Assembly: GCA_963702215.1 (NCBI GenBank)
Contig: OY969726.1
Location: 1,809,533-1,873,532, forward strand
Length of the DNA: 64,000 nt
Source of the DNA: an uncultured Bacteroidota bacterium
GTDB taxonomy: Bacteria; Bacteroidota; Ignavibacteria; Palsa-1295
Direction of reading: 5' to 3'
Positions within the stretch are counted from its first letter, which is position 1, and each line of letters begins with the position of its first letter. This document shows positions 1-29,290 of this stretch, one piece after another. The translations under genes and the position numbers were made by a program. A model generated the notes under the pieces. It was not told the origin of the DNA. It saw only the letters and a program-made list of their open reading frames with translations, and ran no database searches.

Positions 1-1398
<1,398 letters not shown>

Positions 1399-1440
1399 GG
1401 ATCGCAGCAGACGTTGCGGGGACTTTTGTAACCTCGACTC

Positions 1441-2437
1441 TTAATTCACGGTGGCGTAACAGACTTCGAAAAAGCTTTTCACATCGTTCCACCGTTTCTC
1501 GAGGCGAAACCCGCTCGCTTTCAGGATCTCCTCGAAAGCCTCCGGAGAATATTTGTACGAAAATTCCGTAATAACATGTTCCCCTTCCGCGAAATAAATT
1601 TCCTCTCCTTCTAAGAGGTAATGCTGAGCCTTCCGGCTGACTAAATGCATCTCGATTCGGCTTTGCTGCTCGTTAAAGAACGCGAGATGTTCGAAATCGT
1701 TCTGGTGAGATGGGCAGATCGAACGCGGCGGCAACCCGCTCGATTAAGTGAAGATTAAATTCGGCGGTAATTCCTTCCGCATCGTTGTACGCTGCTTCGA
1801 GGATGGATTTATCTTTTACCAGATCGAACCCAATGAGTAGGCCACTGCCATCGCCCAATAGCATGGCAATGCCCTTTAGAAATTCGACGGCCTGCTCCGG
1901 CATAAAATTCCCAATCGTCGAGCCGGGAAAGAAAAACATTCGCTTCCCCTTCTCGTTGAATCGCGGAATCGTAATGGGTTTCGTATAGTCTCCACAAACC
2001 GGGCTTATTTCAAGCGTTGGAAATTGTTCCGATAACCGACGCGAAGCGCGCGCGAGCTGCTCTCGTGAAATATCCACTGGGATATACGCGCGAGGCTGAT
2101 CGAGCGCCATGAGCAGCATGCGCGTCTTTACGCCGGCTCCGGTGCCGAATTCAATGACGAGTGCGTTCGGGCCGATAAGCGCGGCCATCTCCAGCAGGTG
2201 GGCCTCGAAGATCGCGATTTCTGTTCGCGTGAGATAATATTCTGGCAGGCGCGTGATTGCCTCGAAAAGCTGCGATCCGCGCTCGTCGTAAAAGAGCTTG
2301 CTCGGAAGCTGTTTCGGCTTGGCAGTCAGGCCCGCAAGCACCTCCCGCCGGAAGGATGACAAAGCCGGCCGCGCTCCGGGATTTATGATGGTAGTGGGGT
2401 GGTTCAAAGAGTAATTAAACACTCGGCATCGGCGCAT
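1441..2437 (-). pseudogene. egtD: EgtD-like L-histidine N-alpha-methyltransferase (ergothioneine-type), interrupted by a frameshift at about 1673-1734
   Basis: The N-terminal 254-aa ORF (1673-2437) carries the EgtD hallmarks LFYDERGSQLFEAITRLPEYYLTRTE, EFGTGAGVKTRMLL and FPGSTIGNF. The C-terminal 97-aa ORF (1441-1734) carries RIEMHL...EGEHVITEFSYKY. The two ORFs overlap in different frames. Their combined length of about 330 aa fits EgtD. Confidence 0.7.
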
Positions 2438-2487
2438 AAATCCGTGCCTCCATCTGCTCTCTGAGAATTAAATCGATATCCGATACC

Positions 2488-3357
2488 GTGCGCAAAGTTC
2501 ACATCGCCACCGTTTCGTTCCTCATGGAGGATACGCCACATTCCGTCCCATTCAATCTGGGCCGGGCCGCCGAATATATTCGTGAGGCGCGACGGGCGGG
2601 TGCCCAACTCGTGTGCCTGCCGGAGACGGTCACGACGAATGGGTTTCCGGGGCACACAAAAGCCGATCCGGATTGGTCCAACTTTTTCCAGGCGGCGGCG
2701 ATCGAGAGTTCGGTCGCTGTTATTGCCCCGTTTTACGTCGAGGAGAATGGGAAGGTGTTCAATCAGGCGAATGTGTTCGATTCATCAGGGAATCGGGTCG
2801 GCTTCTACCGCAAAGTTCAGCCGACGGGAGCGGAAGCGAAGTGGGTGACGCCGGGTAGCGAGTTCCCAGTTCTCGATCTCGGATTTGCGAAGATCGCGAT
2901 GATGATCTGTATGGATATTTATTTCCCGGAGATCGCCCGAATCTACGCCATGAAGGGCGCGGAACTTCTTTTCTGGCCCACAACCACGCATGGCCCGACA
3001 CAAAGCGGCTTGGAGGCGCAACTTCGTTCCCGGGCCATAGATAATTCCCTGCACGTTGTCGAATCGAATCTTGCATGCCACCCGCCGTATGCGCCATATA
3101 ACGGCCGATTTTATCCGGGCAATGCACGCATCGTGGATTTCAGTGGCGATATGCTCGCGCAAACCGGCCGGCGGGGCGGGATCGCGTTCGCGAGTATCGA
3201 TCTGGACGAACGCCGAATGACTTCAAACGTCGTCCTCATCCACGAACCCGACGACACCCGCCTCGATTTGGAAGCGCTTGCGCAAATGGATTTATATGCG
3301 AAAGAATATGCCGCTATTGCCGCTCGTCAAAAACGATTTTACGACTCCATCAAATGA
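2488..3357 (+). CDS. carbon-nitrogen hydrolase family amidohydrolase (nitrilase / beta-ureidopropionase / N-carbamoyl-amino-acid amidohydrolase-like)
   Basis: 289 aa with an E-K-C triad context (VCLPETV ... MMICMDIYFPE ... ELLFWPT) typical of the CN-hydrolase fold. Confidence 0.8.
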   Translation: MRKVHIATVSFLMEDTPHSVPFNLGRAAEYIREARRAGAQLVCLPETVTTNGFPGHTKADPDWSNFFQAAAIESSVAVIAPFYVEENGKVFNQANVFDSSGNRVGFYRKVQPTGAEAKWVTPGSEFPVLDLGFAKIAMMICMDIYFPEIARIYAMKGAELLFWPTTTHGPTQSGLEAQLRSRAIDNSLHVVESNLACHPPYAPYNGRFYPGNARIVDFSGDMLAQTGRRGGIAFASIDLDERRMTSNVVLIHEPDDTRLDLEALAQMDLYAKEYAAIAARQKRFYDSIK

Positions 3358-4646
3358 GGAAATATTTTGCAACGCTTACCGTCCTTGCTCTCGCGTCCGT
3401 TCTTGGTGGCTGCAATCGAGCGGAAAACGCCCCCGGCAAAATCCACCTCAAGCTCGTTCACTTTTATCTCGATCAGAAGGATGCGTGGCAGCATGATGTC
3501 GTCGATCCATTTATGAAGGCGCACCCCAATATCGAGATCGATGTCGAAGCGATTCCGTATGGGTTATACACCGCGAAGATCGAGGCAGCGGCGGCAAGCG
3601 GTACATCGCTCGGGGATGTTGTTGTCATCGACGATTGGTTTGGGCAGGATCTCTTCAAACGCGATTATACGATTCCACTGGATTCGTTTTTTCATCGCGA
3701 TCTGAATGACAGCGATTTCTTCACACAATTTTTCACCGTATGGCATAGAGGCAATGTTCCCACAGGGCCGCTCATGGCCATGCCGGCATGCGGAGGCGTA
3801 ACCGCACTTTTCTATAACAAAGATCTCTTCGATAAAGCTGGGCTTCAATATCCCGATTCTTCCTGGACTTATAACGATATGTTAAATGCCGCGCGAACGC
3901 TGACGAACAATGAGGCAGATCCCGCAAAGAAGAGCTGGGGACTCTTGCTCGATGACGGAGGCTTTACCGGAGTCGATACCTACATTTACTCGAACGGTGG
4001 AAGAATCCTGAGCAATGATATGCAGCACAGCGCAATGATGGATCCGGCGACGCTTGCGGTGGTTCAATCCTATATCGATCTCGTTCAGAAAGATCATCTT
4101 GCACCTCCGCCGGACCCCTCGATGCCGCTGGGGGAACAGTTCCTGCTGGGCCGCGCAGGAATGATGCTGAATATCGACTACGCAAAAACAGAGCTCGCGC
4201 ACGCCACCTTTCGTTGGGATTTAGCCGCACCGCCCCGAGGCTCTGCCGGACTGATGGACCGTGAGAATGGCCAAGCCTTCGGTATTCCGACGACGTGCGA
4301 GCATCCGGATTCCGCGTGGGAACTGATTAAATGGATCGTCACGCTGCCCTCGAAAAAGGGAATTAACGATCTCTTCTTCTCCGCCATGCCGCTGTATAGA
4401 CCGCTCGCGAATTCGAGCGATTATCTCGATGGCACCCCAAAGTGCAACCGGCGCGCGCTCATGGCGATCAATAATTACGGGCATCTCTTCACGCTCATCA
4501 CGCCCGGCTGGCAGCAGTGGCGCGACAACGGATTCATTCCCAACATGCAGGATATGCTGGCGGGGCGCGAATCCGTTCAGGACGGCTGCGCTGCCATCGA
4601 TAAAATGATTAACGATGTGCTCGCGCATAATCGCGCCAATCCATGA
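3354..4646 (+). CDS. ABC transporter solute-binding lipoprotein (carbohydrate/oligosaccharide family 1 type)
   Basis: 430 aa. It has a lipoprotein signal with a lipobox (LALASVLGGC), and its size and composition are typical of extracellular solute-binding protein family 1. It is immediately followed by two ABC permeases, and its 4-nt overlap with the upstream gene suggests an operon. Confidence 0.8.
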   Translation: MRKYFATLTVLALASVLGGCNRAENAPGKIHLKLVHFYLDQKDAWQHDVVDPFMKAHPNIEIDVEAIPYGLYTAKIEAAAASGTSLGDVVVIDDWFGQDLFKRDYTIPLDSFFHRDLNDSDFFTQFFTVWHRGNVPTGPLMAMPACGGVTALFYNKDLFDKAGLQYPDSSWTYNDMLNAARTLTNNEADPAKKSWGLLLDDGGFTGVDTYIYSNGGRILSNDMQHSAMMDPATLAVVQSYIDLVQKDHLAPPPDPSMPLGEQFLLGRAGMMLNIDYAKTELAHATFRWDLAAPPRGSAGLMDRENGQAFGIPTTCEHPDSAWELIKWIVTLPSKKGINDLFFSAMPLYRPLANSSDYLDGTPKCNRRALMAINNYGHLFTLITPGWQQWRDNGFIPNMQDMLAGRESVQDGCAAIDKMINDVLAHNRANP

Positions 4647-5511
4647 ACCATTGAAATCACGTTCGGCATATCTCTACCTCCTTCCGATTTTGATCGGCCT
4701 CACCGTATTTACGGCCGGCTCCGTGCTCGCTTCGCTCGCGCTTTCCTTTACGCACTACAATATCGGCCAGTTCCCAGCGTTCACTGGCATAGCAAATTAT
4801 AGGGAGCTTTTTCATTCCGATTTATTTTGGCGGGTGGTTCTGAATACCTGCTATTATGTCGTTCTTTACGTTCCAGCCAGCATCGCTGTCTCGCTTGCAC
4901 TGGCCTTGCTCATCGAGCCGAGCATTCGCGGAATCTCTTTTTTCCGAACCGTTTATTTTCTCCCGGTCGTCGTGAGCATTGTTGCCGCAGCGATAATCTG
5001 GTCGTGGATGTACAATAGCGATGTGGGCCTGCTCAATTATTTGCTTTCGTTCCTTGGCATCGCAGGCCCGAAATGGCTGGACGATCCGCATTGGGCACTG
5101 CCGGCAATTGCCATCATGAGTGTATGGAAAAACGCAGGATATAACATGATGATCTTCCTCGCGGGCCTTGCAAGCATCCCGAAAGATTACCACGAGGCCG
5201 CACGCCTCGATGGATCGAACGCGTGGAACCGTTTTCGGCATATCACGCTGCCCCTGCTTTCGCCGGTAACCTTTTTTGTGCTTATCGTGACGACCATCGG
5301 CGCATTTCAGGTTTTCGAGCAAACATTCGTGATGACGAATGGCGGCCCAGGAGTTTCATCGCTGACGCTCAGCTATTACATTTGGCAAATGGCGTTTCGC
5401 TTTTTCGATCTTGGCGGCGCAAGCGCGCTCGGGTATATTTTGTTCCTCCTCGTACTTCTCGTGACTGGGCTGCAATTTCTCGGGCGACGAAAGTGGGTGT
5501 TTCAGCAATGA
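4615..5511 (+). CDS. ABC transporter permease (MalF/UgpA-like)
   Basis: Six predicted TM segments and the EAA-loop signature EAARLDGSNAWNRFRHITLPLLSP. The ATG at 4615 overlaps the solute-binding gene by 32 nt, so an alternative TTG start at 4651 (MKSRSAYLYLLPIL) is plausible. Confidence 0.85.
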   Translation: MCSRIIAPIHEPLKSRSAYLYLLPILIGLTVFTAGSVLASLALSFTHYNIGQFPAFTGIANYRELFHSDLFWRVVLNTCYYVVLYVPASIAVSLALALLIEPSIRGISFFRTVYFLPVVVSIVAAAIIWSWMYNSDVGLLNYLLSFLGIAGPKWLDDPHWALPAIAIMSVWKNAGYNMMIFLAGLASIPKDYHEAARLDGSNAWNRFRHITLPLLSPVTFFVLIVTTIGAFQVFEQTFVMTNGGPGVSSLTLSYYIWQMAFRFFDLGGASALGYILFLLVLLVTGLQFLGRRKWVFQQ

Positions 5512-6338
5512 AGAAGACCCTTCACCACATCGTTCTTTGGATGGTTGCGGCGATGATGTTGGTGCCGCTTGTTTGGATGGCGATTACTTCGCTTCAAAGC
5601 CCGGAATCGCTCGTTCATTTCCCGCCGAAGCTAATTCCTTCTCCGCCTCGATTCTCGAATTATTCCACCGTATTTCGCGAACTCCCAATTGGAACGTTTT
5701 TTCTCAATTCGATCAAGATTTCGGTCCTCGGAACGATTGGCGAACTCATCGCCGCATCGCTCGCAGCCTTCGCATTCGCCAAAATGCGATTTCGTGGTAA
5801 GCGCATTATCTTCGGTCTGCTGCTTGCGACGATGATGATTCCGTTTCAGGTGACGATGATTCCCGTCTATGTCGTCATGCGCTATCTAGGCTGGCTGGAT
5901 AACCTCGCTTCCCTCATTGTGCCGCATTTCTTCGGCGGCGCCTTTGCCTCGGGAGCTTTTGGCGTATTTTTGCTCCGGCAATTTTTCGAATCGGTTCCCA
6001 AAGAATTGGAAGATGCCTCGCGCATCGATGGCGCGAGCCAGTTCCGGTATTTCATAACCATTTTGTTACCGCTTTCTCGACCTGCGCTCGCAGTGCTTGC
6101 GCTGTTCGTTTTTATGGGTATTTGGAATGATCTGCTTTCGCCCGTCCTCTTTCTTTCGAGCGAAGATAAAATGCCGCTGCCGTTCGGACTCGCCGTTCTG
6201 CAAACGGTTCAGCATAATTTTCGGTACGATTTGCTCATGGCCGGAACGCTCATTAGCATCGTTCCCATCGTTATCGCCTACATTTTCGCCCAGCGATATG
6301 TGACTCAGGCATTTTTGCGTGCAGGAGTGAAGGGATAG
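5508..6338 (+). CDS. ABC transporter permease (MalG/UgpE-like)
   Basis: The ATGA overlap with the upstream permease puts the start at 5508, so the table ORF starting at 5223 is over-extended. The EAA-loop is DASRIDGASQFRYFITILLPLSRPAL. No ATPase gene is present in the cluster. Confidence 0.85.
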   Translation: MKKTLHHIVLWMVAAMMLVPLVWMAITSLQSPESLVHFPPKLIPSPPRFSNYSTVFRELPIGTFFLNSIKISVLGTIGELIAASLAAFAFAKMRFRGKRIIFGLLLATMMIPFQVTMIPVYVVMRYLGWLDNLASLIVPHFFGGAFASGAFGVFLLRQFFESVPKELEDASRIDGASQFRYFITILLPLSRPALAVLALFVFMGIWNDLLSPVLFLSSEDKMPLPFGLAVLQTVQHNFRYDLLMAGTLISIVPIVIAYIFAQRYVTQAFLRAGVKG

Positions 6339-6344
6339 AGCCCA

Positions 6345-7496
6345 ATGGAATCCATATCAATCGAGCGCGTAATTCTACGCCGCGTTCGCATTCCTATGCG
6401 TGAGCCGTTTCGAATTTCGAATGGCGTCGTTTCCAAAAAGGAAAGCATCGTCGTGGAATTGCATTCGCGTGGCCGGATTGGTTACGGCGAAGCCTCACCA
6501 ATGAGCGGCTCGTTCTATTCGAGTGAAACGCCGGAGAGCACGTGGTCTGCATTGGCGAATGACCTTATTCCCGATCTTTTCTCGCGAAGCCTTGCAAATC
6601 CCGTGGAGTTCGCCGAAGTGCTCAATGATTATGTGGGCGAGCCATTCGCGCGAGCAGGAATCGAAGGGGCGGTGTGGGATTTATTTGCCGCCCATCTCGG
6701 CACCAGCATTCGGGAGCTGTTCGGCGCACCTTCCGCCAGAATCCCTTCCGGCCTCGCAGTCGGCATATATGAGTCTGTCGAAGAATTGCTCGATCGCATC
6801 GCGTTTTACCAGAAGGACGGTTACCAGCGTGTTAAAATAAAAATCGCGCCGGGATGGGATATAGAGCCACTCACCGCAGTGCGCAACCGTTTCGGAGATA
6901 TTCCGCTTATGGTCGATGCGAACGCGGCTTATAATTTGTCCGAACACGCGGATATTCTCTGTTCGCTCGACCGATTCCATCTCATGATGATCGAGCAGCC
7001 GCTCGGGAGCAATGCACTTGACGCACTAGCGGAACTTTCGCGGATGATGCCAACGCCGATCTGCTTCGATGAATCAGCGGATTCGCTCGACGCGCTCGAA
7101 AAAATCATTGCGCTGCGGCCACCAGCTAACCCCTTCCTTGAACAGGCGGGGAAATTTATCCTGAATATCAAAGTGCAGCGGGTGGGCGGGTTGTGGAATG
7201 CGAGGAAAATGCTCGATCGTGCGCGCGAGGCCGGGCTTGCGTGCTGGCTCGGCACAATGCCGGAGCTTGGCATTGCCAGCGCGCAGGCCCTTGCGATTGC
7301 AACGCTCCCGGGATTTGTTTATCCGACGGACATCGAAGCCAGCGATCGATGGTTCGCTGACGATCTTACGGATCCCGCCATCACAATTTCAAGCGATGGA
7401 TTTATTGTTCCACCCAATGAAGGAACGACGGGATACCTCGTGGATCGACAAAAGTTAGAACTCTATACGATCGAAAAGCGAGTATTCGAACGATAA
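6345..7496 (+). CDS. enolase-superfamily enzyme (mandelate racemase / muconate lactonizing enzyme family; OSBS / N-acyl amino acid racemase / dipeptide epimerase-like)
   Basis: 383 aa. It has an MR/MLE N-terminal capping domain and a barrel with KIKIAPG...DANAAYN, placing candidate metal ligands and the acid/base Lys in the expected positions. Confidence 0.75.
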   Translation: MESISIERVILRRVRIPMREPFRISNGVVSKKESIVVELHSRGRIGYGEASPMSGSFYSSETPESTWSALANDLIPDLFSRSLANPVEFAEVLNDYVGEPFARAGIEGAVWDLFAAHLGTSIRELFGAPSARIPSGLAVGIYESVEELLDRIAFYQKDGYQRVKIKIAPGWDIEPLTAVRNRFGDIPLMVDANAAYNLSEHADILCSLDRFHLMMIEQPLGSNALDALAELSRMMPTPICFDESADSLDALEKIIALRPPANPFLEQAGKFILNIKVQRVGGLWNARKMLDRAREAGLACWLGTMPELGIASAQALAIATLPGFVYPTDIEASDRWFADDLTDPAITISSDGFIVPPNEGTTGYLVDRQKLELYTIEKRVFER

Positions 7497-7497
7497 T

Positions 7498-8430
7498 ATG
7501 AAGGCAGCAGAAGTTCAGGAACGTTTGCGGAACCGGCTTATCCCGGCCGTGCCGGTTCCGTTTACGGCGGATCGAATTATCCATCACGAATCCCACGTGC
7601 GCATGGCAGGATACATGGCCGACATGCCGATCGCGGGGGTGGCCGTATGGGCCCATACAGGGCGCGGGCTGCTACTAACGGAGAATGAACGCACGGAAGT
7701 ACTGACGCATTGGCGCGAATCGTTACCGGAATCGATCATCGTGGCCGGAGCAGGCTCGCGCGAGATGGCGAAACATGCGGCTTCGCTCGGCGCAGATGCA
7801 ATTCTCTGCCATCCGCCCACGCAGCTTCGGGAACTTCCGGAGCGAGAACGCGATGGCGCTATCATGGAATATCATCGCGAACTTTCAGAAGCCGGTCTTC
7901 CCCTTATCCTATTCTATCTCTATGAAGCCGCCGGCGGCATCGACTACTCAACCGACCTCCTTCGCAAACTCCTCGCGCTACCAAAAGTAATCGGCATCAA
8001 GGTCGCCACGCTCGATAGCATCATGACATTCCAAACCCTGGCAAAAGTCATCAAAGCCGACTTCCCGCACAAGCTTCTCATTACCGGCGAAGACCGTTTC
8101 TTCGGCTACTCGCTCATGCTCGGTGCAGACGCGGCCCTCGTGGGCATGGGAACGGCGCTCACGGCACTGCAAGCCGAGATGATGCAAGCGTATTACTCGC
8201 AACAATCCGAAGATTTTCTTTACCGCTCGAACGTCGTCGATCGATTCGCTATGGCCACCTTCACCGCACCGATGGAAGGATATATCGGCCGGATGCTTTA
8301 CGCGCTCTCGTGGCTGGGCGTGATTTCACCAAACGCGATTTTTGACCCCTGGGCACCAAGCATTGAAGAAGAAGACGTTCAACGCGTTGGCGATTTCCTT
8401 GCCACCCTGCCAACCGAACTCAAACGCTGA
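7498..8430 (+). CDS. dihydrodipicolinate synthase / N-acetylneuraminate lyase family (class I aldolase/dehydratase) protein
   Basis: 310 aa. It has a GVAVWAHTGRG motif (GxxxxGTTGE-like) and a Schiff-base lysine context VIGIKVATLDS. It is translationally coupled to its neighbours. Confidence 0.7.
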   Translation: MKAAEVQERLRNRLIPAVPVPFTADRIIHHESHVRMAGYMADMPIAGVAVWAHTGRGLLLTENERTEVLTHWRESLPESIIVAGAGSREMAKHAASLGADAILCHPPTQLRELPERERDGAIMEYHRELSEAGLPLILFYLYEAAGGIDYSTDLLRKLLALPKVIGIKVATLDSIMTFQTLAKVIKADFPHKLLITGEDRFFGYSLMLGADAALVGMGTALTALQAEMMQAYYSQQSEDFLYRSNVVDRFAMATFTAPMEGYIGRMLYALSWLGVISPNAIFDPWAPSIEEEDVQRVGDFLATLPTELKR

Positions 8431-9618
8431 TGGACTGGCGCGCAAAGCTCCGCGAAGATTTCGAGCGTTTTGCCAATGGGCTTCCGCGCCCCCTTGAAGG
8501 TTACATTCTCGAAACGTACGGAATCTCCCTTGCAAGCGAATATGCCGGAATCCCTATAAAGAATCCATTCGGAAAAGCGTCCGGTCAGCTTTCTCTTAAT
8601 GAGAATCAGGTTGAGCGGGACGCGGAAGCCGGACTCGGATTCGTCGTTCTTAAGACGCTTATCGCTCAAGATGAGAGCGGCTCGCAGTCGATGAAAGCGT
8701 GGGCCATTCAGGCCACAAAGATGACGGTCGAAGAAATTGTTGGAACCCGTGAAGCCGTGCGCGGCGAGCGAGGGTGGACGATTTCGTGGAAAGGACGCGG
8801 ATGGAGCGAAAGTTTCGAAAAGTATCTCGATTTTTTCGATCGTGCGCTCCAAATTGGATGGAACGCAAAAATGCTGATCGTTCCCTCGGTCAAATATCAT
8901 CTTCCAAAGCCGGGCGAAGACGAATGGCGAACGGGCGAATATGAGTTTACGACATCTGAAGCTGCACCAGCTCTGGCAACGACACCGAAAGGATCCGATG
9001 CCACTCGAAAAGGATTTTTCGCCGACACTCGCCGGCGATCAGGATTTTTCGCGCGAGAAGGAGAATATCCTCAACTGGCTTCACCATGTGCCGCGAATTG
9101 TTCGAAAAACGAGCGTCGGGAACGCTGTTCGTCTCGGCCTCAAGATTTTTAACGCCGGGTTCTCGGATGAATTCCAGCTCGCAATGCTCGATCTCTGCGA
9201 GGCAAGCATGCCGCGCGCCGATTACATTATTTATGGGAACCGGTTGTTCGATCCAATAAAGAGTTACGAGGGCGTGAGTGGCGTTGCCTACGGCGGCCCG
9301 GATTTGAGTGACCGAAATCTTTCCGTGCTTTCACGCTGGCGGCATTCCATTCCCCTTTCGGCGACCGGAAATATCACCACGGGCCGAATGGCCTTCGAAT
9401 ATTTGAAAAACGGAGCAACATCGTTCCAAATGCATACGCTCTTTCAGTTTCCAGATTCGGAATTCGTAATGAAAGGGGGTTCCCGAACCGAGCGTGCCTT
9501 GCACCGGCTGTTGTTTCATCCCGAGCATGGGTTCCTTGCCCCGCTGCTGGCCCAAGGAGAAAAGCAAGGGTGGGCGCGGGAAATAAGCATCGCGGAGATT
9601 GCGCGGAGCTATCAGTAA
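8430..9618 (+). CDS. dihydroorotate / dihydropyrimidine dehydrogenase-like FMN TIM-barrel protein, split by a frameshift (overlap 8941-9152)
   Basis: The N-terminal ORF contains GIPIKNPFGKASGQLS and LGFVVLKT, which resemble DHOD-like substrate and FMN loops. The C-terminal ORF (8941-9618, different frame) contains IPLSATGNITTGRMAFEYLKNGATSFQMHT, which matches the DHOD C-terminal motif IPIIGxGGIxSGxDAxEkIxAGAsxVQxyT. Confidence 0.6.
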
Positions 9619-9639
9619 CGCAGTTGTTCTCGCCCCGCG

Positions 9640-9657
9640 AGCGGACTTTTAGTCCGC
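9640..9657 (+). terminator. weak stem-loop downstream of the DHOD-like gene
   Basis: GCGGACT-TTT-AGTCCGC is a perfect 7-bp stem lying 22 nt after the stop codon. No U-tract follows it, so terminator function is uncertain. Confidence 0.3.
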
Positions 9658-9824
9658 ATCCTGCTGAGGGAGCTTAAGCGCGATCCGTCTAGAAGTCCGT
9701 CGCACAGACAAAAATACCTGTGCCACTCCGCTCGTCACTTATTGTTTTGCCAGATTTTGTGCATCGCCCTCTTTTATATCATAAATTTGTAGTTAAGAAT
9801 TGTACCGAAGAAAGGCTCATCATA

Positions 9825-11103
9825 ATGAATTTTGAAATCGCAGACGAGATCGACATAGTAACCCCAACATTTCCGGCGCGGACGGTGCCGCCGGTATCGC
9901 AGATGGCGCAAGGGCTAATTGGCTCGGAGATCTTAAAAATCGCCGCCGATATTCGCGCGATGGTGGCGGAGGGGCACACAATCTGCAATCTCACCGTTGG
10001 CGATTTCGATCCAAAATACTTCCCGATCCCGAGGAGCCCTGCGAACGTCGATCGAAGCGGCGCTCGACGCCGGCGAAACGAATTATCCGCCGTCGGATGG
10101 AATGTTGAACGCTTCGCAAAGCCGTGAAAAGCTTTTACGAACGGCGGCTTGGCCTGGATTATCCAACCGAATCCTTCATCATCACGAGTGGCGCGCGGCC
10201 AGCGATTTATTCCACGTATGCCACGCTGATCGACGAAGGCGATAAGGTGGTTTACCCGGTTCCATCGTGGAATAATAATCATTATTGCCACGTGGCCCGC
10301 GCAACATGGGAACGTGCGGTCTGCCGCCCGGAGGATGCGTTTCCTTCCCACTCGCGAAGTGCTGGATGGCAAACTCGCCGATGCCAAATTGCTTTCGCTC
10401 TGCTCGCCGCTCAATCCGGCGGGCACCGCGTTTACCCGCGAGGCGCTGGAAGGAATTTGCGATCTCGTGATTGATGAGAATGATCGTCGCGGTCTCGGAT
10501 GACCGACCGCTTTTCATAATGTACGATCAGGTATATTGGATGCTGACGTTTGGCGAGACGGTGCATTACAACCCGGTTTCGCTTCGACCGGAGCTGGCTG
10601 CGAATACGATCTTTGTCGATGGCATCAGCAAAGCCTTCGCTGCAACGGGTGTGCGCGTCGGGTGGGCCGTGGCCGCGCCGGATGTTGCGCATCGCATGTC
10701 CAACATTTTGGGGCATATCGGTGCCTGGGCGCCTCGAGCGGAGCAGGTCGCCACGGCGGCGCTCCTCCTCGATGATGACGCCATCGATGGCTACCACGCA
10801 ACGATGATCGCGGAAATCGAGGCGCGCTTGAATCTGCTGTATCACGGCATTCGCGATTTGCGCGAAGCCGGGTTCCCCATGGATGCGATTACGCCGATGG
10901 GTGCGATTTACCTTACCGCGCGCTTCGATCTGATCGGCCGCAAATCCCCATTGGGAACGACTTTCGAGACAAACGAAGATATTCGCAAGTATTTGCTCGA
11001 AGAGGTGCGGCTGGCGGTCGTGCCGTTCCAGGCATTTGGTTCCGAAGGCAATTCGAGGCTGGTTCCGGCTCTCCGCCGGTGCGGTTTCGATGGAAGCCAT
11101 TGA
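9825..11103 (+). pseudogene. class I/II PLP-dependent aminotransferase, fragmented over at least four reading frames
   Basis: Consecutive ORF pieces recapitulate an aminotransferase: 9825-10127 (MNFEIADEIDIV...ICNLTVGDFD), 10124-10300 (FIITSGARPAIYSTYATLIDEGDKVVYPVPSWNNN), 10314-10502 (LSLCSPLNPAGTAFTREALEGICDL) and 10471-11103 (PLP-lysine motif GISKAFAATGVRVGW plus the C-terminal domain). Confidence 0.65.
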
Positions 11104-11166
11104 GGGGATGCTCGGACGACTGCGTACGGCGCTGGAATCCCTATAATCTTAAACTTCCGTTCTCGA

Positions 11167-12786
11167 TTACAACGTCCCGAAAACCTCGATGGATTCGGTT
11201 CCCAAATCGAAGCTCACCACCGCGCGCCCGTGATTCTTGAGCGTTTCGAAATCGCCGATGGCTTGGGCGCGGATGAGCGTGCCGAAGCTGTAGGGTTTTT
11301 CGGGAATCGGAATGTCTTCCTTAGGCGTATCGACAAATTGCACGAACACGCCGCCCGGCGGGCCGCCTTTGTGAAGCTGGCCGGTCGAATGCAGGAACCG
11401 CGGGCCAAAGCCAACCGTCACCGGCACATGATATTTTAACGAGAGCCGGTCGCGCAGTTCCGCCAGAGCCGCTTGCGATGCTTCGTTCCGCTCGATGAAG
11501 GCCATGATCGCGATATAGCTATCGGATTTCAGATTCTCGGCGAGAAATTGAGCTAATGCGGAGAGGGAAAAACCACCCCCTGCCCCCTCCTTGAAAAGGA
11601 GGGGGGTTCCAGGACGATACCCTTCAAGCACTTCATTGGTTTTCGCTTTGCTCTCTGCGACGTTCGGCTCGTCGAATGGATTAATTCCCAGCCGTTCGCC
11701 TGCAACCGCAGTGGCAAATTCCCATCGGAAGAATTCCGCGCCGATATCGTAAAGATTCTCCAAATGAAGTGCGAAATGCGCGGGCCGCCCCTGCAGGTCT
11801 TCATCGAGCGATTCTTCGCCAAGGGTCAGGTGCGCATAAATGCGGTAATCGGCCTGCTCTTTTCGAGCCGCCTCGCTCTCACCTTCGATCGGAAGGATGC
11901 CCTTACCCAGCTTGCCCGTACTCTCGGCGATAAGCTGCTCGGCCCAATATCCAAAAGATCGAAGTTTCGGAGGCGTGACGATCGTAAGCTTATTACGGCC
12001 ATTTTTCGCGGCATCGCCCAGGAATATGCCGAAGGCGAGCGGCGAATTGCGCTCCTCTTCCGCGCGCGAAAGTCCCGCTTCGGAACTGGCACTCGATAGT
12101 ATTTTTTCGATGTCGATCCCCGCCAGCGCGGCTGGAACCATACCAAAATACGAAAGCACGGAATAACGCCCGCCGATATCCGGCGGATTCGAAAAGGTAT
12201 GGCGGAATCCGCGATCGTCGCCCAATTTCTCGAGCGTCGTATCGGGGTCAGTGATCGCTGCAAAATGAAGCCTGCGATCGTCACCCAGGGATTCCAGTTT
12301 TTTCCAGAAATAATCGTAATAGCATTGCGGCTCCAGCGTCGTGCCCGATTTGCTCGCCACGATGAATAGCGTTTTTGCGAGATCGCAGGCGCGTTCCGTC
12401 GCCAGCACCTGATCGGGATGCGTGCTATCGAGCACCAGGATGCTGGGATATCCATTCCGGGTTTCAAATGAATCCCGCAAAGTCTCGACGCAGAGGCTGC
12501 TACCGCCCATACCGAGAATGACGACATGTGTGATGCCGTCTTTCTGAACCCCCTTCGCAAAATCGGCGATCTCATTGAGCTGTTTGAGCGACCAATCGGA
12601 GACTTCGAGCCATCCAAGGCGATCCTCGATCGTTTGACGGATTTTAGGATCCGAACTCCATACGCCAGAATCTTTCTCCCAGATCCGAGTGGGTAGTTTT
12701 TGCTCGATAGCACCCGCAATAGCTGTGCGCAATTCATCCGTGAGGACGGTTTCTTCGGGCTGCAAGGTCTTTCCGGTTCCCAACAT
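11167..12786 (-). CDS. pgi: glucose-6-phosphate isomerase
   Basis: 539 aa with PGI signatures HVVILGMGGSSL and GGRYSVLS. The start codon overlaps the tal stop (TGATG). Confidence 0.9.
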   Translation of the reverse strand: MLGTGKTLQPEETVLTDELRTAIAGAIEQKLPTRIWEKDSGVWSSDPKIRQTIEDRLGWLEVSDWSLKQLNEIADFAKGVQKDGITHVVILGMGGSSLCVETLRDSFETRNGYPSILVLDSTHPDQVLATERACDLAKTLFIVASKSGTTLEPQCYYDYFWKKLESLGDDRRLHFAAITDPDTTLEKLGDDRGFRHTFSNPPDIGGRYSVLSYFGMVPAALAGIDIEKILSSASSEAGLSRAEEERNSPLAFGIFLGDAAKNGRNKLTIVTPPKLRSFGYWAEQLIAESTGKLGKGILPIEGESEAARKEQADYRIYAHLTLGEESLDEDLQGRPAHFALHLENLYDIGAEFFRWEFATAVAGERLGINPFDEPNVAESKAKTNEVLEGYRPGTPLLFKEGAGGGFSLSALAQFLAENLKSDSYIAIMAFIERNEASQAALAELRDRLSLKYHVPVTVGFGPRFLHSTGQLHKGGPPGGVFVQFVDTPKEDIPIPEKPYSFGTLIRAQAIGDFETLKNHGRAVVSFDLGTESIEVFGTL

Positions 12787-13919
12787 CAGGCGATGGCCTC
12801 CTCGATCGTGTGCCGTTTGGATTCCAAATTTTTCGCGAGCGAATCGAAGGCATCCGCGAATTTCTTCACACCTTCGACCTGTAATTCCGTAGCCACCTGC
12901 TCGGTGTCAATTCCGATCTTGCTCAACCGTTCAATCACTTCGTGGGCGTCAGTGATTCCTTTAGTGAGCGTGTCGGCAACTGTTCCGTGATCGGCGAAAG
13001 CCTCGATCGTCTCGTCCGGCACGGTGGTTACGGTTTCTGCGCCAATAAGCGGTTCGATGTATTTAACATCGCTATAATCGGGATTCTTCGTGCTGACGCT
13101 CGCCCATAAACATCGCTGGGGCCGCGCGCCGGAATTGCTCAAATCCGAAAACGGAGCGCCATGAAAAATTTCGAGATAATGCTCGTAGGCAAGCTTGGCA
13201 TTGGCAATGGCGGCTAAGCCGTGGAGCGAACGAATCGGGCCCGCTGCACCGTCGGCGGCGCCGATTTTGGCGTCGAGCTTCTGATCGACATTCGTATCGA
13301 CGCGCGAAAGGAAAAAGCTCGCCACGCTCGCCACACGAGAAATATCCTTGCCGCGCTTTTTCAAATCCTTCAGCGCGTCCAGATATGCTTTTGCGACCTG
13401 CGAATAACTCTCGATCCCAAAAAGGAGCGTGATGTTGATATTGATGCCTTCGGAGAGGCATTGCCGAATAGCGGGAACTCCTTCAGGCGTACCAGGAATC
13501 TTTATCAGCACATTCGGCCGATCGACCGTCTTCCACAGCCGCCGAGCCGCATCGATGGTCTCCTCGGTTTTGTTGGCAAGCTTCGCATCGACTTCGATCG
13601 AGACAAATCCATCGACGCCCCGAGTCCGGTCATAGACAGGGCGCAAAATATCGGCAGCATTGCGAACATCGTCGGTGGTGAGATGCTCGTAGATTTCCGC
13701 GGTCGTGAGTCCATCGCGCACGCCCTGCTCGATGTCCTCGTCATATTCATCGCCTTTGGAGATCGACTTTTCAAAGATGGAGGGATTGGATGTAATGCCG
13801 CGAAGCCCGAGCTCCTCGATCATATTGGCTATTTTTCCCTCGGTGATAAATTTTCGGCTCAGGTTATCGTACCATAGGCTTTGGCCGTAGCGTTCTAATT
13901 CTTTCCAGCGGTTTGACAT
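12786..13919 (-). CDS. tal: transaldolase
   Basis: 377 aa with GITSNPSIF and the catalytic Lys region. It is translationally coupled to pgi, an arrangement seen elsewhere as bifunctional Tal-Pgi proteins. Confidence 0.9.
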   Translation of the reverse strand: MSNRWKELERYGQSLWYDNLSRKFITEGKIANMIEELGLRGITSNPSIFEKSISKGDEYDEDIEQGVRDGLTTAEIYEHLTTDDVRNAADILRPVYDRTRGVDGFVSIEVDAKLANKTEETIDAARRLWKTVDRPNVLIKIPGTPEGVPAIRQCLSEGININITLLFGIESYSQVAKAYLDALKDLKKRGKDISRVASVASFFLSRVDTNVDQKLDAKIGAADGAAGPIRSLHGLAAIANAKLAYEHYLEIFHGAPFSDLSNSGARPQRCLWASVSTKNPDYSDVKYIEPLIGAETVTTVPDETIEAFADHGTVADTLTKGITDAHEVIERLSKIGIDTEQVATELQVEGVKKFADAFDSLAKNLESKRHTIEEAIA

Positions 13920-13980
13920 GAAAAATTAAGTTTTTGGTGGAGATACATTCTTCGTCCCGAAATCAGAACGAGAAGCGTGC

Positions 13981-14017
13981 AAAAAATAAGCCCTCGCAGA
14001 GAGATTCTGCGAGGGCT
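13981..14017 (-). terminator. rho-independent terminator for the large cargo gene C
   Basis: On the minus strand the sequence GCCCTCGCAGA-atctc-TCTGCGAGGGC forms an 11-bp perfect stem and is followed by TTATTTTTTG. Confidence 0.6.
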
Positions 14018-17000: not shown

Positions 17001-18322
17001 ATGACCGAATGCCCCGCCGGGGGATAGAAGGTGATTGGTTCCCCATTGATCATGATGTGCAGGATCGAATCGTCCTCGCATAAGAAAGTTCCGTAATGGA
17101 CAAACCCCGCCACCCCGGTTCGATCCGGTGGCCGAAAGATCATCTTATTCTGGAACTGTTCCTTCGGCGTGAGGACGATCGAAAATGGATCGGAGAGTCC
17201 CGGATCCCCATCGTAATTCTGGCTATATGCCATTTGGACCGCGAGGAACTTTTCTCCGCCCTGAGAAGAAATCGTGCTCGGCTCGACCACCTCATCGAAA
17301 TCGTAATAATCACCTGCATGGAGCAGTGTGGTCTGCTGATTCCGATTGGCGCTCACAAGCGTAACCGTCACATTATCTTGTCCCGCAATCACACGAATCA
17401 AATCGCCGCACACGACGCGTGTTGCTGTTGGCATGTCGTAATACTGCGTTCCCCATTCCTGTATGGGCGGAACCATCTCCATCACTTCGTCCTTGGAGCC
17501 ATTCGAGGCGGCCAGTTCCCCGATGGGAATCGAGCAAAGCTGGTGCCCGGAGATGAGCCCGATTGGCTTCGTGCTCGTGATATGAGTCCCAGTTAGGTCC
17601 GCATCGCCATACTGCAGTCCGGTCGATTGCACGAGGTACGTTTGGCCCTTCATGAGCGTGATGTTCCAGGTGTCGCCCGCATGGTGCAGAATGGTTGTCG
17701 CGTTTGGGTCCTGTCGCGTATCCGTCTTCACGGGGCCAATCGTGACGAGATTATTGTCATAAGGCGAAATAATCAAAAACTGCCCCGCCAGGGGAGGAGT
17801 CCCAAGCAGCGTGTAATGATCGTCGTAATAGCACGCGGGGTAATACTCGGTTCCCAGCGCCGGCGTCGGGATGGCAAGATAACTGTCGGTTGAGGAGGTA
17901 TTGGCTCCGGTATATTGATAGCCATAGACCACGACTGGATTCTTTGAATAAACATGAATACCAAAATTGACTGCTTCCTCCGGCGAATAATCTTCCCACG
18001 CCGCTTCACTCCGTGCCGGAACCGTCCAAATGCTATTGGGCGTCATCGTGGAATGGTATGTCTCTACCGGGCCGGACGAGCCGCCATAGACATCGACGTG
18101 AACATCGTTAGCGGTTCCCGTACCAATGTAGAGCACGCAATTCTCTGGCGGGCAGCAGTTTAGTCCAAACGAATTTGGCATGAACCCCATCCAGAAATCG
18201 GTTCCCATCGAAGTTTGGCCTTTTTGGGCAACCGCGCCCGAGGGCCAAAGCCACGCCGAAACAAGCAGGAGTGCTGCCCAGTGAAGGAAATTCAGACGCA
18301 AAGACTGACGAGTTATATACAT
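14059..18322 (-). CDS. giant T9SS-secreted cell-surface protein (paralog C), apparently interrupted by a frameshift at 15542-15726
   Basis: The 941-aa ORF has a signal peptide (MYITRQSLRLNFLHWAALLLVSAWLWPSGAVAQ) and an N-terminal GTDFWMGFMPN domain homologous to the paralogs at 19401 and 23881, but it has no sorting domain. The overlapping 555-aa ORF has no signal peptide and ends with a T9SS C-terminal sorting domain (NPTRGDATVAY...LTMDIYDALGQR...GSYILRVSDG...VVQK). Fused, they would give a protein of about 1450 aa, matching paralog A. Confidence 0.6.
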
Positions 18323-18420
18323 GGAATTCCGAAAATAAGAAAAACAAAGTTCTGAGACGCGCCGCATGCGCGCCTCACTTAACTACCACCCGCCGCACCA
18401 TTGCGGCAACTCTTCCCCGT

Positions 18421-19230: not shown

Positions 19231-19400
19231 GGTTTTGTTCGTTAAGTCGAGTGTGTTTGTTAAAAGCTTGCAGTGGCTACGACGCATGAATCGTTCATAC
19301 CGTGATCTCTCATGCGCGAAAGGTTGAGTTTCCAAGTCCTTTCGGCTGCCGTTAGTTCCGCAAATTGAAAATCGTTCATTCGATGACTCCATTTTTCATT

Positions 19401-23690: not shown

Positions 23691-23880
23691 CGAAGTGTGG
23701 AGGGCTTCGCGACTCCATCGCGAAGATACCTTCTATAGTTAAAAACGCGCGGAAGGCTTCGGGTTACAAATTATTTTTATGAATTGTGGACATCCACCCA
23801 AAAATCCCGCGCTCAATTTGCAAAGCAATTCCAAGCGAAACAGTTCAGCGACGCAACCTAATTCCCCGTGGCGGGCGGCA

Positions 23881-28907: not shown

Positions 28908-28940
28908 GGTCTTGATGGGTCGTAACAGAAGGAGAAACAC

Positions 28941-29283: not shown

Positions 29284-29290
29284 CTACCCT

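Follow-up and report, generated by a model that had tools for sequence, protein, structure and literature searches.

Which compound is taken up and broken down through the eight-gene cluster in this window (the whole stretch of 64,000 nucleotides that was analysed), and do its genes form a single pathway that is intact in the organism?

Gene content, layout and conservation

All eight genes lie on the plus strand and encode, in order, a CN_hydrolase, an SBP_bac_1 protein, two BPD_transp_1 proteins, an MR_MLE enzyme, a DHDPS-family member, a DHOD-like protein and a class I/II aminotransferase (Table 1). Six of the seven junctions are an overlap or a gap of at most 6 nt: ATGA overlaps join hydrolase to binding protein and permease 1 to permease 2, TGATG joins the DHDPS and DHOD-like genes, and gaps of 1-6 nt separate binding protein from permease 1, permease 2 from the MR/MLE gene and the latter from the DHDPS gene. 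The first seven genes are tightly coupled. An earlier note made from the sequence had described a same-strand, partly translationally coupled eight-gene array, and its genes, junctions and all eight family assignments hold, as does the lack of an ATPase; the intact state of the last two reading frames, the array end at 11103 and the term island do not, the corrected aminotransferase gene running from 9825 to 11146.

Table 1. Coordinates of the cluster genes and of the gap before the last gene.
Feature	Position	Strand	Remarks
Nitrilase-superfamily C-N hydrolase, Nit2/omega-amidase-like	2488..3357	+	289 aa; PF00795 125.5 bits
Family-1 solute-binding lipoprotein, CUT1-type ABC importer	3354..4646	+	430 aa; PF01547 98 bits
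ABC permease 1 (UgpA/MalF-like)	4651 (or 4615)..5511	+	PF00528; UgpA 3e-38
ABC permease 2 (UgpE/MalG-like)	5508..6338	+	PF00528 73 bits; UgpE 2.5e-33; ATGA overlap onto permease 1
Enolase-superfamily enzyme, NSAR/OSBS subfamily	6345..7496	+	383 aa; TIGR01928 237.3 vs cut-off 200.65
Divergent DHDPS/NAL-family Schiff-base lyase	7498..8430	+	310 aa; PF00701 52.6 bits
DHOD/DPD-fold TIM-barrel protein, unnamed family	8430..9618	+	395 aa corrected; ORFs 8430-9152 and 8941-9618
Intergenic gap	9619..9824	.	206 nt; 108 nt longer than in orthologues
AspAT-like class I aminotransferase	9825..11146	+	438 aa corrected; five 1-nt insertions

The solute-binding protein carries a signal peptide with a lipobox (LGG/C20), and its best PDB match is an arabino-oligosaccharide-binding protein (6rjy, 1.3e-19), followed by Lmo0181 and a trehalose/maltose-binding protein; this likeness to oligosaccharide binders, set against a cluster with no glycosidase, counts against the explanation that we prefer below. 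Permease 1 starts at TTG 4651, where tblastn places residue 1 of the orthologue, with an alternative in-frame ATG at 4615. A tblastn search of the 64 kb with a MalK probe returned no ABC ATPase, and a scan of all six frames of the window found neither an LSGGQ signature nor an ABC-type Walker A motif. The arrangement of a family-1 binding protein and two MalF/MalG-like permeases with no ATPase in the operon resembles CUT1 sugar importers served by a shared MsmK/MsiK-type ATPase, but here the accompanying enzymes are of amino-acid type instead of glycosidases.

The set from C-N hydrolase to DHOD-like gene recurs in 11 Kapabacteria/Ignavibacteriota genomes, ten of which also have the aminotransferase, and in related genomes it lies between IMPDH/EgtD and PGI/transaldolase. 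Its GC content (0.51-0.58) is like that of the flanks, and the window holds no tRNA genes. Rather than an island, as had been proposed, the cluster is chromosomal and vertically inherited in Kapabacteria/Ignavibacteriota. It was rightly called uncharacterised: the 11 loci of identical gene content are all from MAGs, none has an assigned substrate, and we found no description of the cluster in the literature.

Membership of the aminotransferase is less clear-cut. The corrected protein has an SK(A) PLP-lysine motif, and its orthologue matches Sinorhizobium AatB best in the PDB (6f35, 3e-39) and aspartate transaminase best in NCBIfam (1e-52, under the cut-off). The gap before it contains a hairpin that follows the stop codon and has no U-tract (fold z-score only -1.83), no Rfam match, and a TAAATTTG motif at 9782-9789, which is no more frequent in the window than expected by chance; a separate promoter here is possible, and the aminotransferase may be its own transcription unit. 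Its linkage to the cluster is restricted to Kapabacteria, in which the housekeeping flanks are syntenic as well, so it may be the general AspAT. This raises the alternative that the functional unit comprises only the ABC, MR/MLE, lyase and DHOD-like genes instead of all eight forming a single pathway; the aminotransferase, and perhaps also the C-N hydrolase, would then be housekeeping neighbours retained through general synteny. The long gap with its possible promoter-like motif, the absence of an aminotransferase beside the lyase and DHOD-like genes outside Kapabacteria, and the equal synteny of the flanking PGI and TAL genes all fit such a view. We nevertheless regard it as rather unlikely, though the most serious of the alternatives, given that even L014 and L030, the Kapaibacterium loci that diverge most, have the aminotransferase in its usual place despite a changed upstream flank, and that the hydrolase is coupled to the binding protein because its stop overlaps the start of the latter.

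A lyase and a DHOD-like protein as the conserved core

In 76 of 80 loci, spread over at least four phyla (Acidobacteriota, Planctomycetota, Firmicutes and Kapabacteria), the lyase gene has the DHOD-like gene as its direct neighbour; an NSAR-like gene is present in 33 of these loci, in 29 of them adjacent. The conserved core is thus narrower in genes and wider in phyla than the earlier note saw.

The search for orthologues of the lyase yielded 461 genome stretches. Residue K168 never varies, Y140 and T54 are also conserved, and the place of GxTGE is taken by AHTGRG; scores fall under both the DapA and the NanA cut-offs. Invariant R56 and R200 occupy the positions of the NAL glutamates (GxTGE, GxDE), so that an acidic substrate fits better than a polyol.

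For the DHOD-like protein, the model of an orthologue (pLDDT 90.3) gave DHODH and DPD as top Foldseek matches (TM 0.52-0.65, probability 1.0), and the TIM-barrel fold and C-terminal GG...(A/G)TG(N/G)I phosphate-binding motifs are held in common with DHODH and PreA. However, identity to these is only 12-17%, about 90 residues are extra, no catalytic base was identified, and the partner gene is of the DHDPS family, never a pyr or pre gene. We treat it as a separate family, because it fails the cut-offs of PF01180 and PreA/PyrD (PreA 24.7 bits against 335) and, out of 1.8 billion, its family profile picks up no more than 342 representatives. The alignment with DHODA is confined to the C-terminal phosphate-binding region, and the same motif also occurs in TIM barrels that bind no flavin; the protein is probably an FMN-dependent oxidoreductase. 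The family is compact, and its members are annotated only as 'hypothetical'.

Other loci with this pair carry an M20 N-acyl-L-amino-acid amidohydrolase (TIGR01891, 367 bits against 154), GNAT, M55/M28/S15 peptidases and MFS, SSF or CUT1 transporters, as well as sugar-processing genes (NagC-like ROK regulator, NagB-like, MocA, xylose-isomerase-like TIM, GH-like). In kind, these accessory genes follow the same logic, which speaks for the pathway proposed below.

Candidate pathway and its counterparts

The enolase-superfamily member is, as judged from its sequence, an NSAR/OSBS-type enzyme with the full catalytic residue set: N-succinylamino acid racemases in the PDB match at 6e-63, and K164, K166, D191, E217, D242, K276 and R279 align with K161, K163, D189, E214, D239, K263 and R266 of the Amycolatopsis enzyme. 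Together with the TIGR01928 score this replaces the sugar-acid or hydroxyproline type that had been suggested for it. The C-N hydrolase has the E46/K109/C141 triad motifs and an ORF that is intact relative to its orthologues; it matches mouse Nit2 best in the PDB (2w1v, 8.2e-24) and AguB best in NCBIfam (92 bits; cut-off 410), and it stays far under every equivalog cut-off.

From the gene content, order and coupling, the conservation, the folds and family memberships and the catalytic residues, we infer each chemical step, the order of the steps and the substrate as follows. The CUT1-type importer (lipoprotein and two permeases, with an ATPase from elsewhere) would take up a sugar-like or N-substituted amino-acid conjugate, from which the Nit2-like hydrolase could strip an amide or N-acyl group. 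Inversion at, or elimination across, the alpha-carbon of an N-acylated carboxylate would fall to the NSAR/OSBS-type enzyme, and the acidic 2-oxo or imino acid so formed would pass to the probably FMN-dependent DHOD/DPD-fold oxidoreductase and the Schiff-base lyase, which may release pyruvate and an aldehyde, or dehydrate, or deaminate. The AspAT-like aminotransferase, if part of the pathway at all, might supply or remove a 2-oxo acid. Taken as a whole, this scenario of a catabolic cluster for an N-acylated or glycosylated acidic amino acid, with a pyruvate-lyase end step, is one for which we see the balance as even. An N-substituted amino-acid-like compound is the best reading of the substrate class, in line with the modified amino acid proposed earlier.

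NSAR-type racemization is known from other routes. In Geobacillus kaustophilus, an operon that converts D- to L-amino acids combines an NSAR with a GNAT N-succinyltransferase and an M20 L-desuccinylase (Sakai 2006 via PMC12006748). This operon and the DgcN/DgcA N-acetyl-D-Glu route share with the window cluster the NSAR/OSBS-type racemase, including the R266 equivalent, and a deacylase in the same cluster. GNAT and M20 aminoacylase are absent from the window cluster, whose hydrolase is of the nitrilase superfamily, but do occur in related clusters of other phyla; conversely, the ABC importer, DHDPS-family lyase, DHOD-fold protein and aminotransferase that are present here do not belong to the known pathway. 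The presence of both a Nit2-like hydrolase and a class I aminotransferase in one cluster also recalls the glutamine/asparagine transaminase and omega-amidase (Nit2) pair, but the two genes stand at opposite ends, the hydrolase is only modestly identical to Nit2, and neither gene has a tie to 2-oxoglutaramate.

The earlier interpretation was right on the families, the ATPase-less ABC system, the uncharacterised status and the modified amino acid, and erred on the MR/MLE type, the island and the analogy with reductive pyrimidine or N-carbamoyl-amino-acid (hydantoin-type) catabolism. NSAR enzymes accept N-carbamoyl amino acids, the DHOD/DPD fold is present, and the hydrolase fold is common to beta-ureidopropionase and D-carbamoylase (weak matches, 1e-8 to 4e-7). 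The analogy is largely refuted because the ring-opening enzyme is missing: the cluster has no dihydropyrimidinase and, as had been noted, no hydantoinase. A PreT partner is absent too, the hydrolase is closer to Nit2 and AguB, the DHOD-like family is not of DHOD/DPD scale, and the DHDPS-family partner would be left unexplained, making this reading highly improbable.

In a hydroxyproline or 4-hydroxyglutamate-type route, the starting (hydroxy)imino acid, N-acylated or glycosylated, would be epimerised and then oxidised by the flavoenzyme. The DHDPS-family enzyme would cleave or dehydrate a 2-oxo-4-hydroxy acid in the manner of HOGA1 or Pyr4H2C deaminase, and the 2-oxo acid would come from the AspAT-like enzyme. 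The AspAT-like character of the aminotransferase fits, human 4-hydroxy-2-oxoglutarate aldolase is the second-best PDB match of the lyase in a single-sequence search (9e-11), and in other phyla the pair occurs with an S15 X-Pro peptidase, a glyoxylate-reductase-like 2-hydroxyacid dehydrogenase and a PutP-like symporter. Catabolism of hydroxyproline includes DHDPS-family deaminases, and clusters for trans-4-hydroxyproline or hydroxyproline betaine likewise set an epimerase, a flavin dehydrogenase and a DHDPS-family enzyme beside a transporter (PMC4113996). Their epimerase, however, is of the proline-racemase family or an HpbD-type MLE and their oxidase of DAAO type, whereas the window cluster has an NSAR/OSBS-type enzyme (matching Hyp-betaine epimerase and cis-3-Hyp dehydratase only weakly, at 1e-11 and 1e-17) and a DHOD-fold protein, and lacks a proline-racemase-family epimerase, a D-amino-acid oxidase and an aldehyde dehydrogenase such as that for alpha-KGSA. 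As the supporting matches are all under family cut-offs, we consider this route improbable.

An oxidised amino-sugar or nonulosonic-acid route would start from a sialic-like acid or an N-acetyl amino-sugar acid (e.g., GlcNAc1A from LPMO-oxidised chitin), the latter formally an N-acyl-D-amino acid, with the DHDPS-family enzyme as a KDG/NAL-type aldolase. The sugar-type CUT1 binding protein agrees with this, and N-acetylneuraminate lyases are the top PDB matches of the lyase family profile (1.8e-17), but DapA and YagE are nearly equal (1e-14) and invariant arginines replace the sugar-binding glutamates of NAL. The ong cluster of Pseudoalteromonas, which encodes a GlcNAc1A pathway 'akin to D-amino acid catabolism', offers a parallel: a sugar-like N-acyl 'D-amino acid' is imported and deacylated, and an aldolase cuts the end product into pyruvate and a triose (PMC9537276). 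Acidobacterial clusters with the core pair resemble its layout, with a TonB-type receptor (barrel), an SSF symporter and NagC-like ROK, NagB-like and GH-like genes. The window cluster lacks an OngB-type D-aminoacylase, the OngC PLP deaminase, RidA and the KdgK kinase, and the ong cluster lacks the NSAR, DHOD-fold protein and aminotransferase, of which the latter two would have no role in such a route; we find it hard to credit.

Interruptions of the two terminal reading frames

The earlier note counted five metabolic enzymes; their families were right, but it overlooked that two are frameshifted in the present sequence. Relative to two orthologues (L001 and L002), the DHOD-like gene is split near 8961 by a 1-nt insertion and the aminotransferase gene near 10031, 10111, 10339, 10498 and 11059, each by one additional nucleotide, such that the tblastn alignment of the latter falls into six HSPs in shifting frames.

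The breaks are clustered, with 7-8 in the first 16 kb (1.7-16 kb) and intact ORFs of 1429, 895, 772 and 767 aa elsewhere in the window, which local gene decay would fit too. A strain losing the pathway, with the DHOD-like gene, the aminotransferase gene and the upstream EgtD as genuine pseudogenes, could also be seen in the split of EgtD at different sites in a related genome. This we hold to be unlikely. Every indel adds a single base, and neither deletions nor nonsense codons occur; five independent indels in 1.3 kb with no accompanying substitutions are unlike neutral decay, judging from usual substitution-to-indel ratios; and the six upstream genes of the cluster are untouched. Private changes at otherwise invariant columns number 4 of 378 and 4 of 409, compared with 1-5 in intact genes of this genome and 1-6 in close orthologues, and are thus not in excess.

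An assembly artefact is likelier than decay because deletion of six bases restores stop-free proteins of 395 aa (DHOD-like) and 438 aa (aminotransferase) with no sign of relaxed selection. The six breaks are probably consensus errors, in which case the cluster of the organism is intact. Sporadic frame breaks are also seen in related long-contig MAG assemblies (2 of 32 genes versus 1 of 124).

Gene content, importer and inheritance of the cluster

The cluster comprises eight plus-strand genes, and the family names given to them in the earlier note were borne out by ORF listing and Pfam scans. The first seven are tightly coupled, since at their junctions they either overlap (ATGA between CN-hydrolase and binding protein and between the two permeases, TGATG between the DHDPS-like and DHOD-like genes) or are separated by gaps of 1-6 nt. 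The aminotransferase gene lies behind a spacer of 206 nt.

Genes of the cluster with window positions, strand and basis of assignment
Feature	Position	Strand	Basis
CN_hydrolase	2488-3357	+	ORF listing and Pfam
SBP_bac_1 binding protein, lipoprotein signal LGG/C20	3354-4646	+	Pfam
BPD_transp_1 permease 1	TTG 4651 (orthologue alignment) or in-frame ATG 4615, to 5511	+	Pfam
BPD_transp_1 permease 2	5508-6338	+	Pfam
MR_MLE enzyme	6345-7496	+	Pfam
DHDPS-family protein	7498-8430	+	Pfam
DHOD-like (weakly DHO_dh-like) gene, two overlapping ORFs	8430-9152 and 8941-9618	+	ORF listing and Pfam
Class I/II aminotransferase, three listed ORFs plus fragments	9825-11146	+	frame-corrected span

As a substrate-specific catabolic operon with a CUT1 importer, the cluster is of an ordinary kind, and its parts belong to known superfamilies. 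The binding protein matches PF01547 with 98 bits (cut-off 26) and carries a lipobox; its nearest solved relatives are oligosaccharide binders, among them an arabino-oligosaccharide-binding protein at 1e-19. Both permeases are matched by PF00528, with UgpA/UgpE and MalF/MalG as the best NCBIfam models, below equivalog cut-offs. The ABC system had been described as lacking an ATPase, and this was confirmed for the whole 64 kb, where a MalK probe found no match and neither an LSGGQ signature nor an ABC-type Walker A motif occurs in any frame; related loci likewise hold no MalK/MsmK-type ATPase at E<=1e-20.

The genes had also been called an island, a term that our data do not support. GC content is 0.51-0.58 across the cluster, the same as in its flanks, there are no tRNA genes in the 64-kb window, and no mobility gene was found near the cluster. 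Thousands of homologues of the DHDPS-like protein exist, and on the contigs of two of them the identical eight genes follow one another in unchanged order, the DHOD-like protein (398 aa) and aminotransferase (437 aa) being intact, in both cases between IMPDH/EgtD and PGI/transaldolase. Species-representative genomes were scanned, yielding 80 loci whose ORFs were clustered before the clusters were annotated. The complete set from CN-hydrolase to DHOD-like gene was present in 11 of the 80, ten of them with the aminotransferase, and all 11 loci derive from Kapaibacterium, Ignavibacteriota or "Bacteroidetes" MAGs. This makes the cluster a chromosomal locus that is inherited vertically.

Further along the window, dnaA (27006-28940, minus strand) encodes a protein of 644 aa that is considerably extended at its N-terminus, and from the position of this gene the replication origin of the chromosome probably lies no more than a few kb from the cluster. 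Next to dnaA, at 29284-30450, is a gene for the anhydro-MurNAc kinase AnmK.

The aminotransferase, which is AspAT class Ib-like, is the weakest link in terms of pathway membership, because of the 206-nt spacer (9619-9824), a possible promoter motif of its own and its absence beside the lyase and DHOD-like genes outside the Kapabacteria. The spacer contains a hairpin (GCGGAC-TTTTA-GTCCGC) directly after the upstream stop and the motif TAAATTTG 36 nt ahead of the aminotransferase ATG. As a promoter, the TAnnTTTG copy before this gene is only a hint: this Bacteroidota-type motif shows no enrichment across the window, with 29 copies against an expectation of 21±5, and a scan for sigma-70 promoters and terminators gave counts at chance level. 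Folding of the spacer is not significantly stronger than that of shuffled sequences (z = -1.83), and no Rfam riboswitch was detected in positions 1-14000. Three insertions (53, 31 and 24 nt) make the spacer 108 nt longer than in two orthologous genomes.

A recurrent lyase and DHOD-fold pair

In 76 of the 80 loci the DHDPS-like and DHOD-like genes lie side by side, and one of the four exceptions is truncated. The adjacent pairs occur in Acidobacteriota (Pyrinomonadaceae, Blastocatellia, Terriglobia), Planctomycetota, Kapabacteria and Firmicutes (Desnuesiella massiliensis, Paenibacillus faecis). The DHDPS-like protein matches PF00701 with 52.6 bits (cut-off 22.1). Its Schiff-base lysine, K168, is invariant in 30 homologues and aligned with that of NAL, and Y140 is aligned with the catalytic tyrosine of NAL. 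Where the family has GxTGE, it reads AHTGRG, retaining T54 and G55 and replacing the glutamate with an invariant R56, and GEDRF stands where NAL has GxDE, so that two invariant arginines take the place of glutamates. The protein is neither DapA nor NanA proper (47.5 against 206 and 52 against 281 bits, respectively), and NAL, DapA, YagE and HOGA1 are roughly equidistant from it. On these sequence grounds we regard it as a separate subfamily, presumably with an acidic substrate.

The DHOD-like protein falls below the family HMM cut-offs (PF01180 19.9 against 27; PreA 24.7 against 335). An AF2 model built from 35 homologues (pLDDT 90.3) found DHODH and DPD as top Foldseek matches, with TM scores of 0.52-0.65 at 12-17% identity, and predicts a TIM-barrel fold with a putative FMN phosphate-binding site. 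With hhalign, the segment YGGPDLS...SATGNI..G..A.EYL, which contains the phosphate-binding motifs, was aligned with the C-terminus of L. lactis DHODA, and this profile alignment covers the C-terminal 55 columns only. The family profile retrieved 342 representatives among 1.8 billion, 105 of them at 1e-30, and at E<=1e-5 the DHOD-like family numbers about 4,700 sequences. The annotation in the sources is "hypothetical protein"; the proteins form a compact, unnamed family.

The MR/MLE enzyme can be assigned from its sequence to the NSAR/OSBS subfamily: it scores 237.3 with TIGR01928 (cut-off 200.65), finds N-succinylamino-acid racemases in the PDB at 6e-63, and has the KxK motif, three metal ligands and second catalytic lysine (K164, K166, D191, E217, D242, K276) as well as R279, the equivalent of the specificity-linked R266. 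Known NSAR/OSBS contexts are the men operon or a GNAT with an M20 desuccinylase (PMC12006748). Neither is matched in the window, where the neighbours are the CN-hydrolase, the ABC system and the DHDPS-like and DHOD-like genes; a GNAT or M20 gene was seen only in the clusters of other phyla. An NSAR-like gene is present in 33 of the 80 loci and adjacent in 29. The CN-hydrolase belongs to the nitrilase superfamily (PF00795, 125.5 bits) and has the Glu-Lys-Cys triad, with E46, K109 and C141 in the motifs CLPE, RKVQP and MICMD; it is nearest to Nit2/omega-amidase (8e-24) and AguB, far below equivalog cut-offs, and much more distant from the carbamoylases and beta-ureidopropionase.

Around the pair, gene content varies between phyla. 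The cluster of Pyrinomonadaceae and Blastocatellia combines a TonB-type barrel, a NagC-like ROK regulator, the lyase, the DHOD-like protein, a GNAT, a NagB-like protein and an SSF symporter with GH123-like, beta-helix and xylose-isomerase-like TIM proteins and a glyoxylate-reductase-like 2-hydroxyacid dehydrogenase, often with an S15 X-Pro peptidase and sometimes with an MLE. The order in Terriglobia is MLE, lyase, DHOD-like, in some cases GNAT, and MFS, with an M55 D-aminopeptidase, M28 and S9/S15-type hydrolases and an OYE flavoenzyme encoded upstream. The two Firmicutes have CUT1 ABC systems, two ADP-ribosylglycohydrolase-family proteins, a MocA oxidoreductase, a xylose-isomerase-like TIM protein, an M20 protein, the lyase, the DHOD-like protein, an MLE and a 2-hydroxyacid dehydrogenase; their M20 protein is an N-acyl-L-amino-acid amidohydrolase (TIGR01891, 367 bits against 154). 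Directly upstream of M20-lyase-DHOD-like, both of these cultured organisms encode a conserved protein of about 440 aa (7233-8555 in locus L048 and 5983-7320 in L073) with no Pfam or NCBIfam match, which may be a further pathway component.

The recurring logic across phyla comprises a transporter, removal of sugars or peptides, an N-acyl-amino-acid set that would serve stereoinversion and deacylation (GNAT, NSAR, deacylase), and the invariant lyase/DHOD-like pair. What the accessory genes indicate is N-acyl or glycosylated amino acids from necromass or plants, a carbon and nitrogen pool that is large and has been little mapped. The cluster had been termed uncharacterised, and a full-text literature search on the gene combination, which gave no relevant description, agrees with this: we found no description of an obligate pair formed by this DHDPS-subfamily lyase and the DHOD-fold family, of the recurrent association of the pair with NSAR-type racemases, or of the particular eight-gene arrangement of the window. 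If the pair is a true two-enzyme module, it would represent a new function for the DHDPS/NAL family and the DHOD/DPD fold alike, the latter in a family carried by abundant, poorly cultured soil phyla (Acidobacteriota, Planctomycetota, Kapabacteria). Two carriers are in culture, Paenibacillus faecis DSM 23593 and Desnuesiella massiliensis, which brings the question within reach of experiment.

Candidate chemistry and substrates

The most economical reading of the gene content, in which we infer every step, would begin with import of an N-acylated and/or glycosylated acidic amino acid and its deacylation or deamidation, by the CN-hydrolase in the window cluster and by M20 elsewhere, with the NSAR-type enzyme racemising C-alpha while the substrate is N-acylated. 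Conversion to a 2-oxo or cyclic imino acid would follow, a step at which the aminotransferase may act in the window cluster; the DHOD-fold enzyme would then catalyse alpha,beta-dehydrogenation or reduction beside a C=O or C=N bond, and the Schiff-base lyase would release pyruvate and an aldehyde.

Three kinds of substrate each fit part of the evidence. A 4-hydroxyglutamate or hydroxyproline-type compound is favoured by the similarity to HOGA1, the AspAT-like aminotransferase and the glyoxylate-reductase-like and X-Pro peptidase neighbours; known trans-4-hydroxyproline clusters, however, have only the DHDPS-family component in common with the window cluster, and no proline-racemase-family epimerase, DAAO-type oxidase or alpha-KGSA dehydrogenase is encoded in 2488-11146. 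By analogy, the parallel layout of the ong cluster (PMC9537276) would suggest a GlcNAc1A-like oxidised amino sugar. The third candidate is meso-DAP or N-acyl-DAP, which would be broken down by the DAP pathway in reverse; each enzyme class of the window cluster has a counterpart in that pathway.

The last candidate leads to the most far-reaching proposal, to which we give little credence: that the pair is the heart of an undescribed, soil-widespread route for an acidic amino acid that forms an N-heterocycle, in its most striking version the reversed DAP pathway. Here peptidoglycan-derived meso-DAP or N-acyl-DAP would be the input, the deacylase would be the analogue of DapE, the NSAR-type epimerase that of DapF and the aminotransferase that of DapC/DapL, while the DHOD-fold enzyme, as analogue of DapB, would oxidise tetrahydrodipicolinate and the lyase would perform a retro-DapA step to pyruvate and aspartate semialdehyde. 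The lyase has a DapA-like IK-x-AT motif, and its two extra invariant arginines might suit a dicarboxylate.

The analogy with reductive pyrimidine or N-carbamoyl amino acid catabolism, drawn initially, is the least supported of the readings. A hydantoinase had already been noted as missing, and indeed the cluster is without any amidohydrolase gene that could serve for ring opening. PreT is missing as well, and the two candidate enzymes are of the wrong subfamilies.

Frame breaks in the last two genes

The DHOD-like and aminotransferase genes are not open as written, a point missed in the earlier note. With the intact orthologues of the related genome L001 as tblastn queries, one frame change was found in the DHOD-like gene and five in the aminotransferase gene, and nucleotide alignment with two orthologues showed every break to be exactly one extra base in the window (near 8961 in the former; near 10031, 10111, 10339, 10498 and 11059 in the latter). 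Deletion of the six bases gives stop-free proteins of 395 aa and 438 aa with natural stops, moving the end of the aminotransferase gene from the 11103 proposed previously. Private changes were counted per genome at otherwise invariant columns, comparing the corrected proteins with 11-12 orthologues: the window has 4 in 378 columns (DHOD-like) and 4 in 409 (aminotransferase), compared with 1-5 in its own intact genes and 1-6 in close orthologues. The corrected proteins contain no in-frame stops or deletions.

It is likely that the six insertions are an assembly artefact. That the two genes are real, very recent pseudogenes is an unlikely alternative, in favour of which the breaks are gathered in the first 16 kb of the window and long ORFs elsewhere (1429, 895, 772 and 767 aa) are unbroken; five independent insertions within 1.3 kb with no excess of substitutions are nevertheless unlike neutral decay, going by usual substitution-to-indel ratios. 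Programmed frameshifting or slippage in the aminotransferase gene was rejected, as none of the five sites is homopolymeric or slippery and the orthologues read straight through. An apparent pattern in which all inserted bases were G shifted with the alignment set and was dismissed as an artefact of gap placement.

Among the related loci, frame breaks affect 2 of 32 core genes on long contigs named MFDxxxxx.bin, which we take to be Microflora Danica nanopore MAGs, against 1 of 124 in other assemblies, a suggestive but weak difference. The DHOD-like gene is also frame-broken in loci L072 (10939-12124), L016 (11080-12173) and L043 (2652-3517), two of which are long-contig MFD MAGs, and this suggests that such assemblies contain indel errors not too rarely. 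The copy of the cluster in the window carries a quality caveat, because probable assembly indels interrupt two genes, which are for the same reason open to being miscalled as pseudogenes or silently merged.

Outside the cluster, a +1 insertion near 1704 splits the gene for an EgtD/EanA-type L-histidine N-alpha-methyltransferase (1441-2437, minus strand), which is transcribed divergently from the CN-hydrolase gene at a distance of 50 nt from the start of the latter; the methyltransferase orthologue in L002, another related genome, is split at two other sites, and that in L001 is intact (TIGR03438, 385.7 bits for the intact orthologue). On the other side, 14059-26568 (minus strand) holds a tandem of three to four large IgGFc_binding/Ig-like/Por_Secre_tail proteins (T9SS cargo); L001 has a single member of about 1500 aa at the matching place, and local expansion of the family has thus taken place in the genome of the window. 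At 14059-18367 (minus strand), two ORFs (941 aa and 555 aa) run colinear with a paralogue of 1429 aa at 19401-23690, with IgGFc_binding and Ig-like repeats followed by a T9SS Por_Secre_tail, the tail in the downstream ORF only. They are probably a single T9SS-type surface protein, split by another frameshift somewhere in the stretch from about 15660 to 15960.
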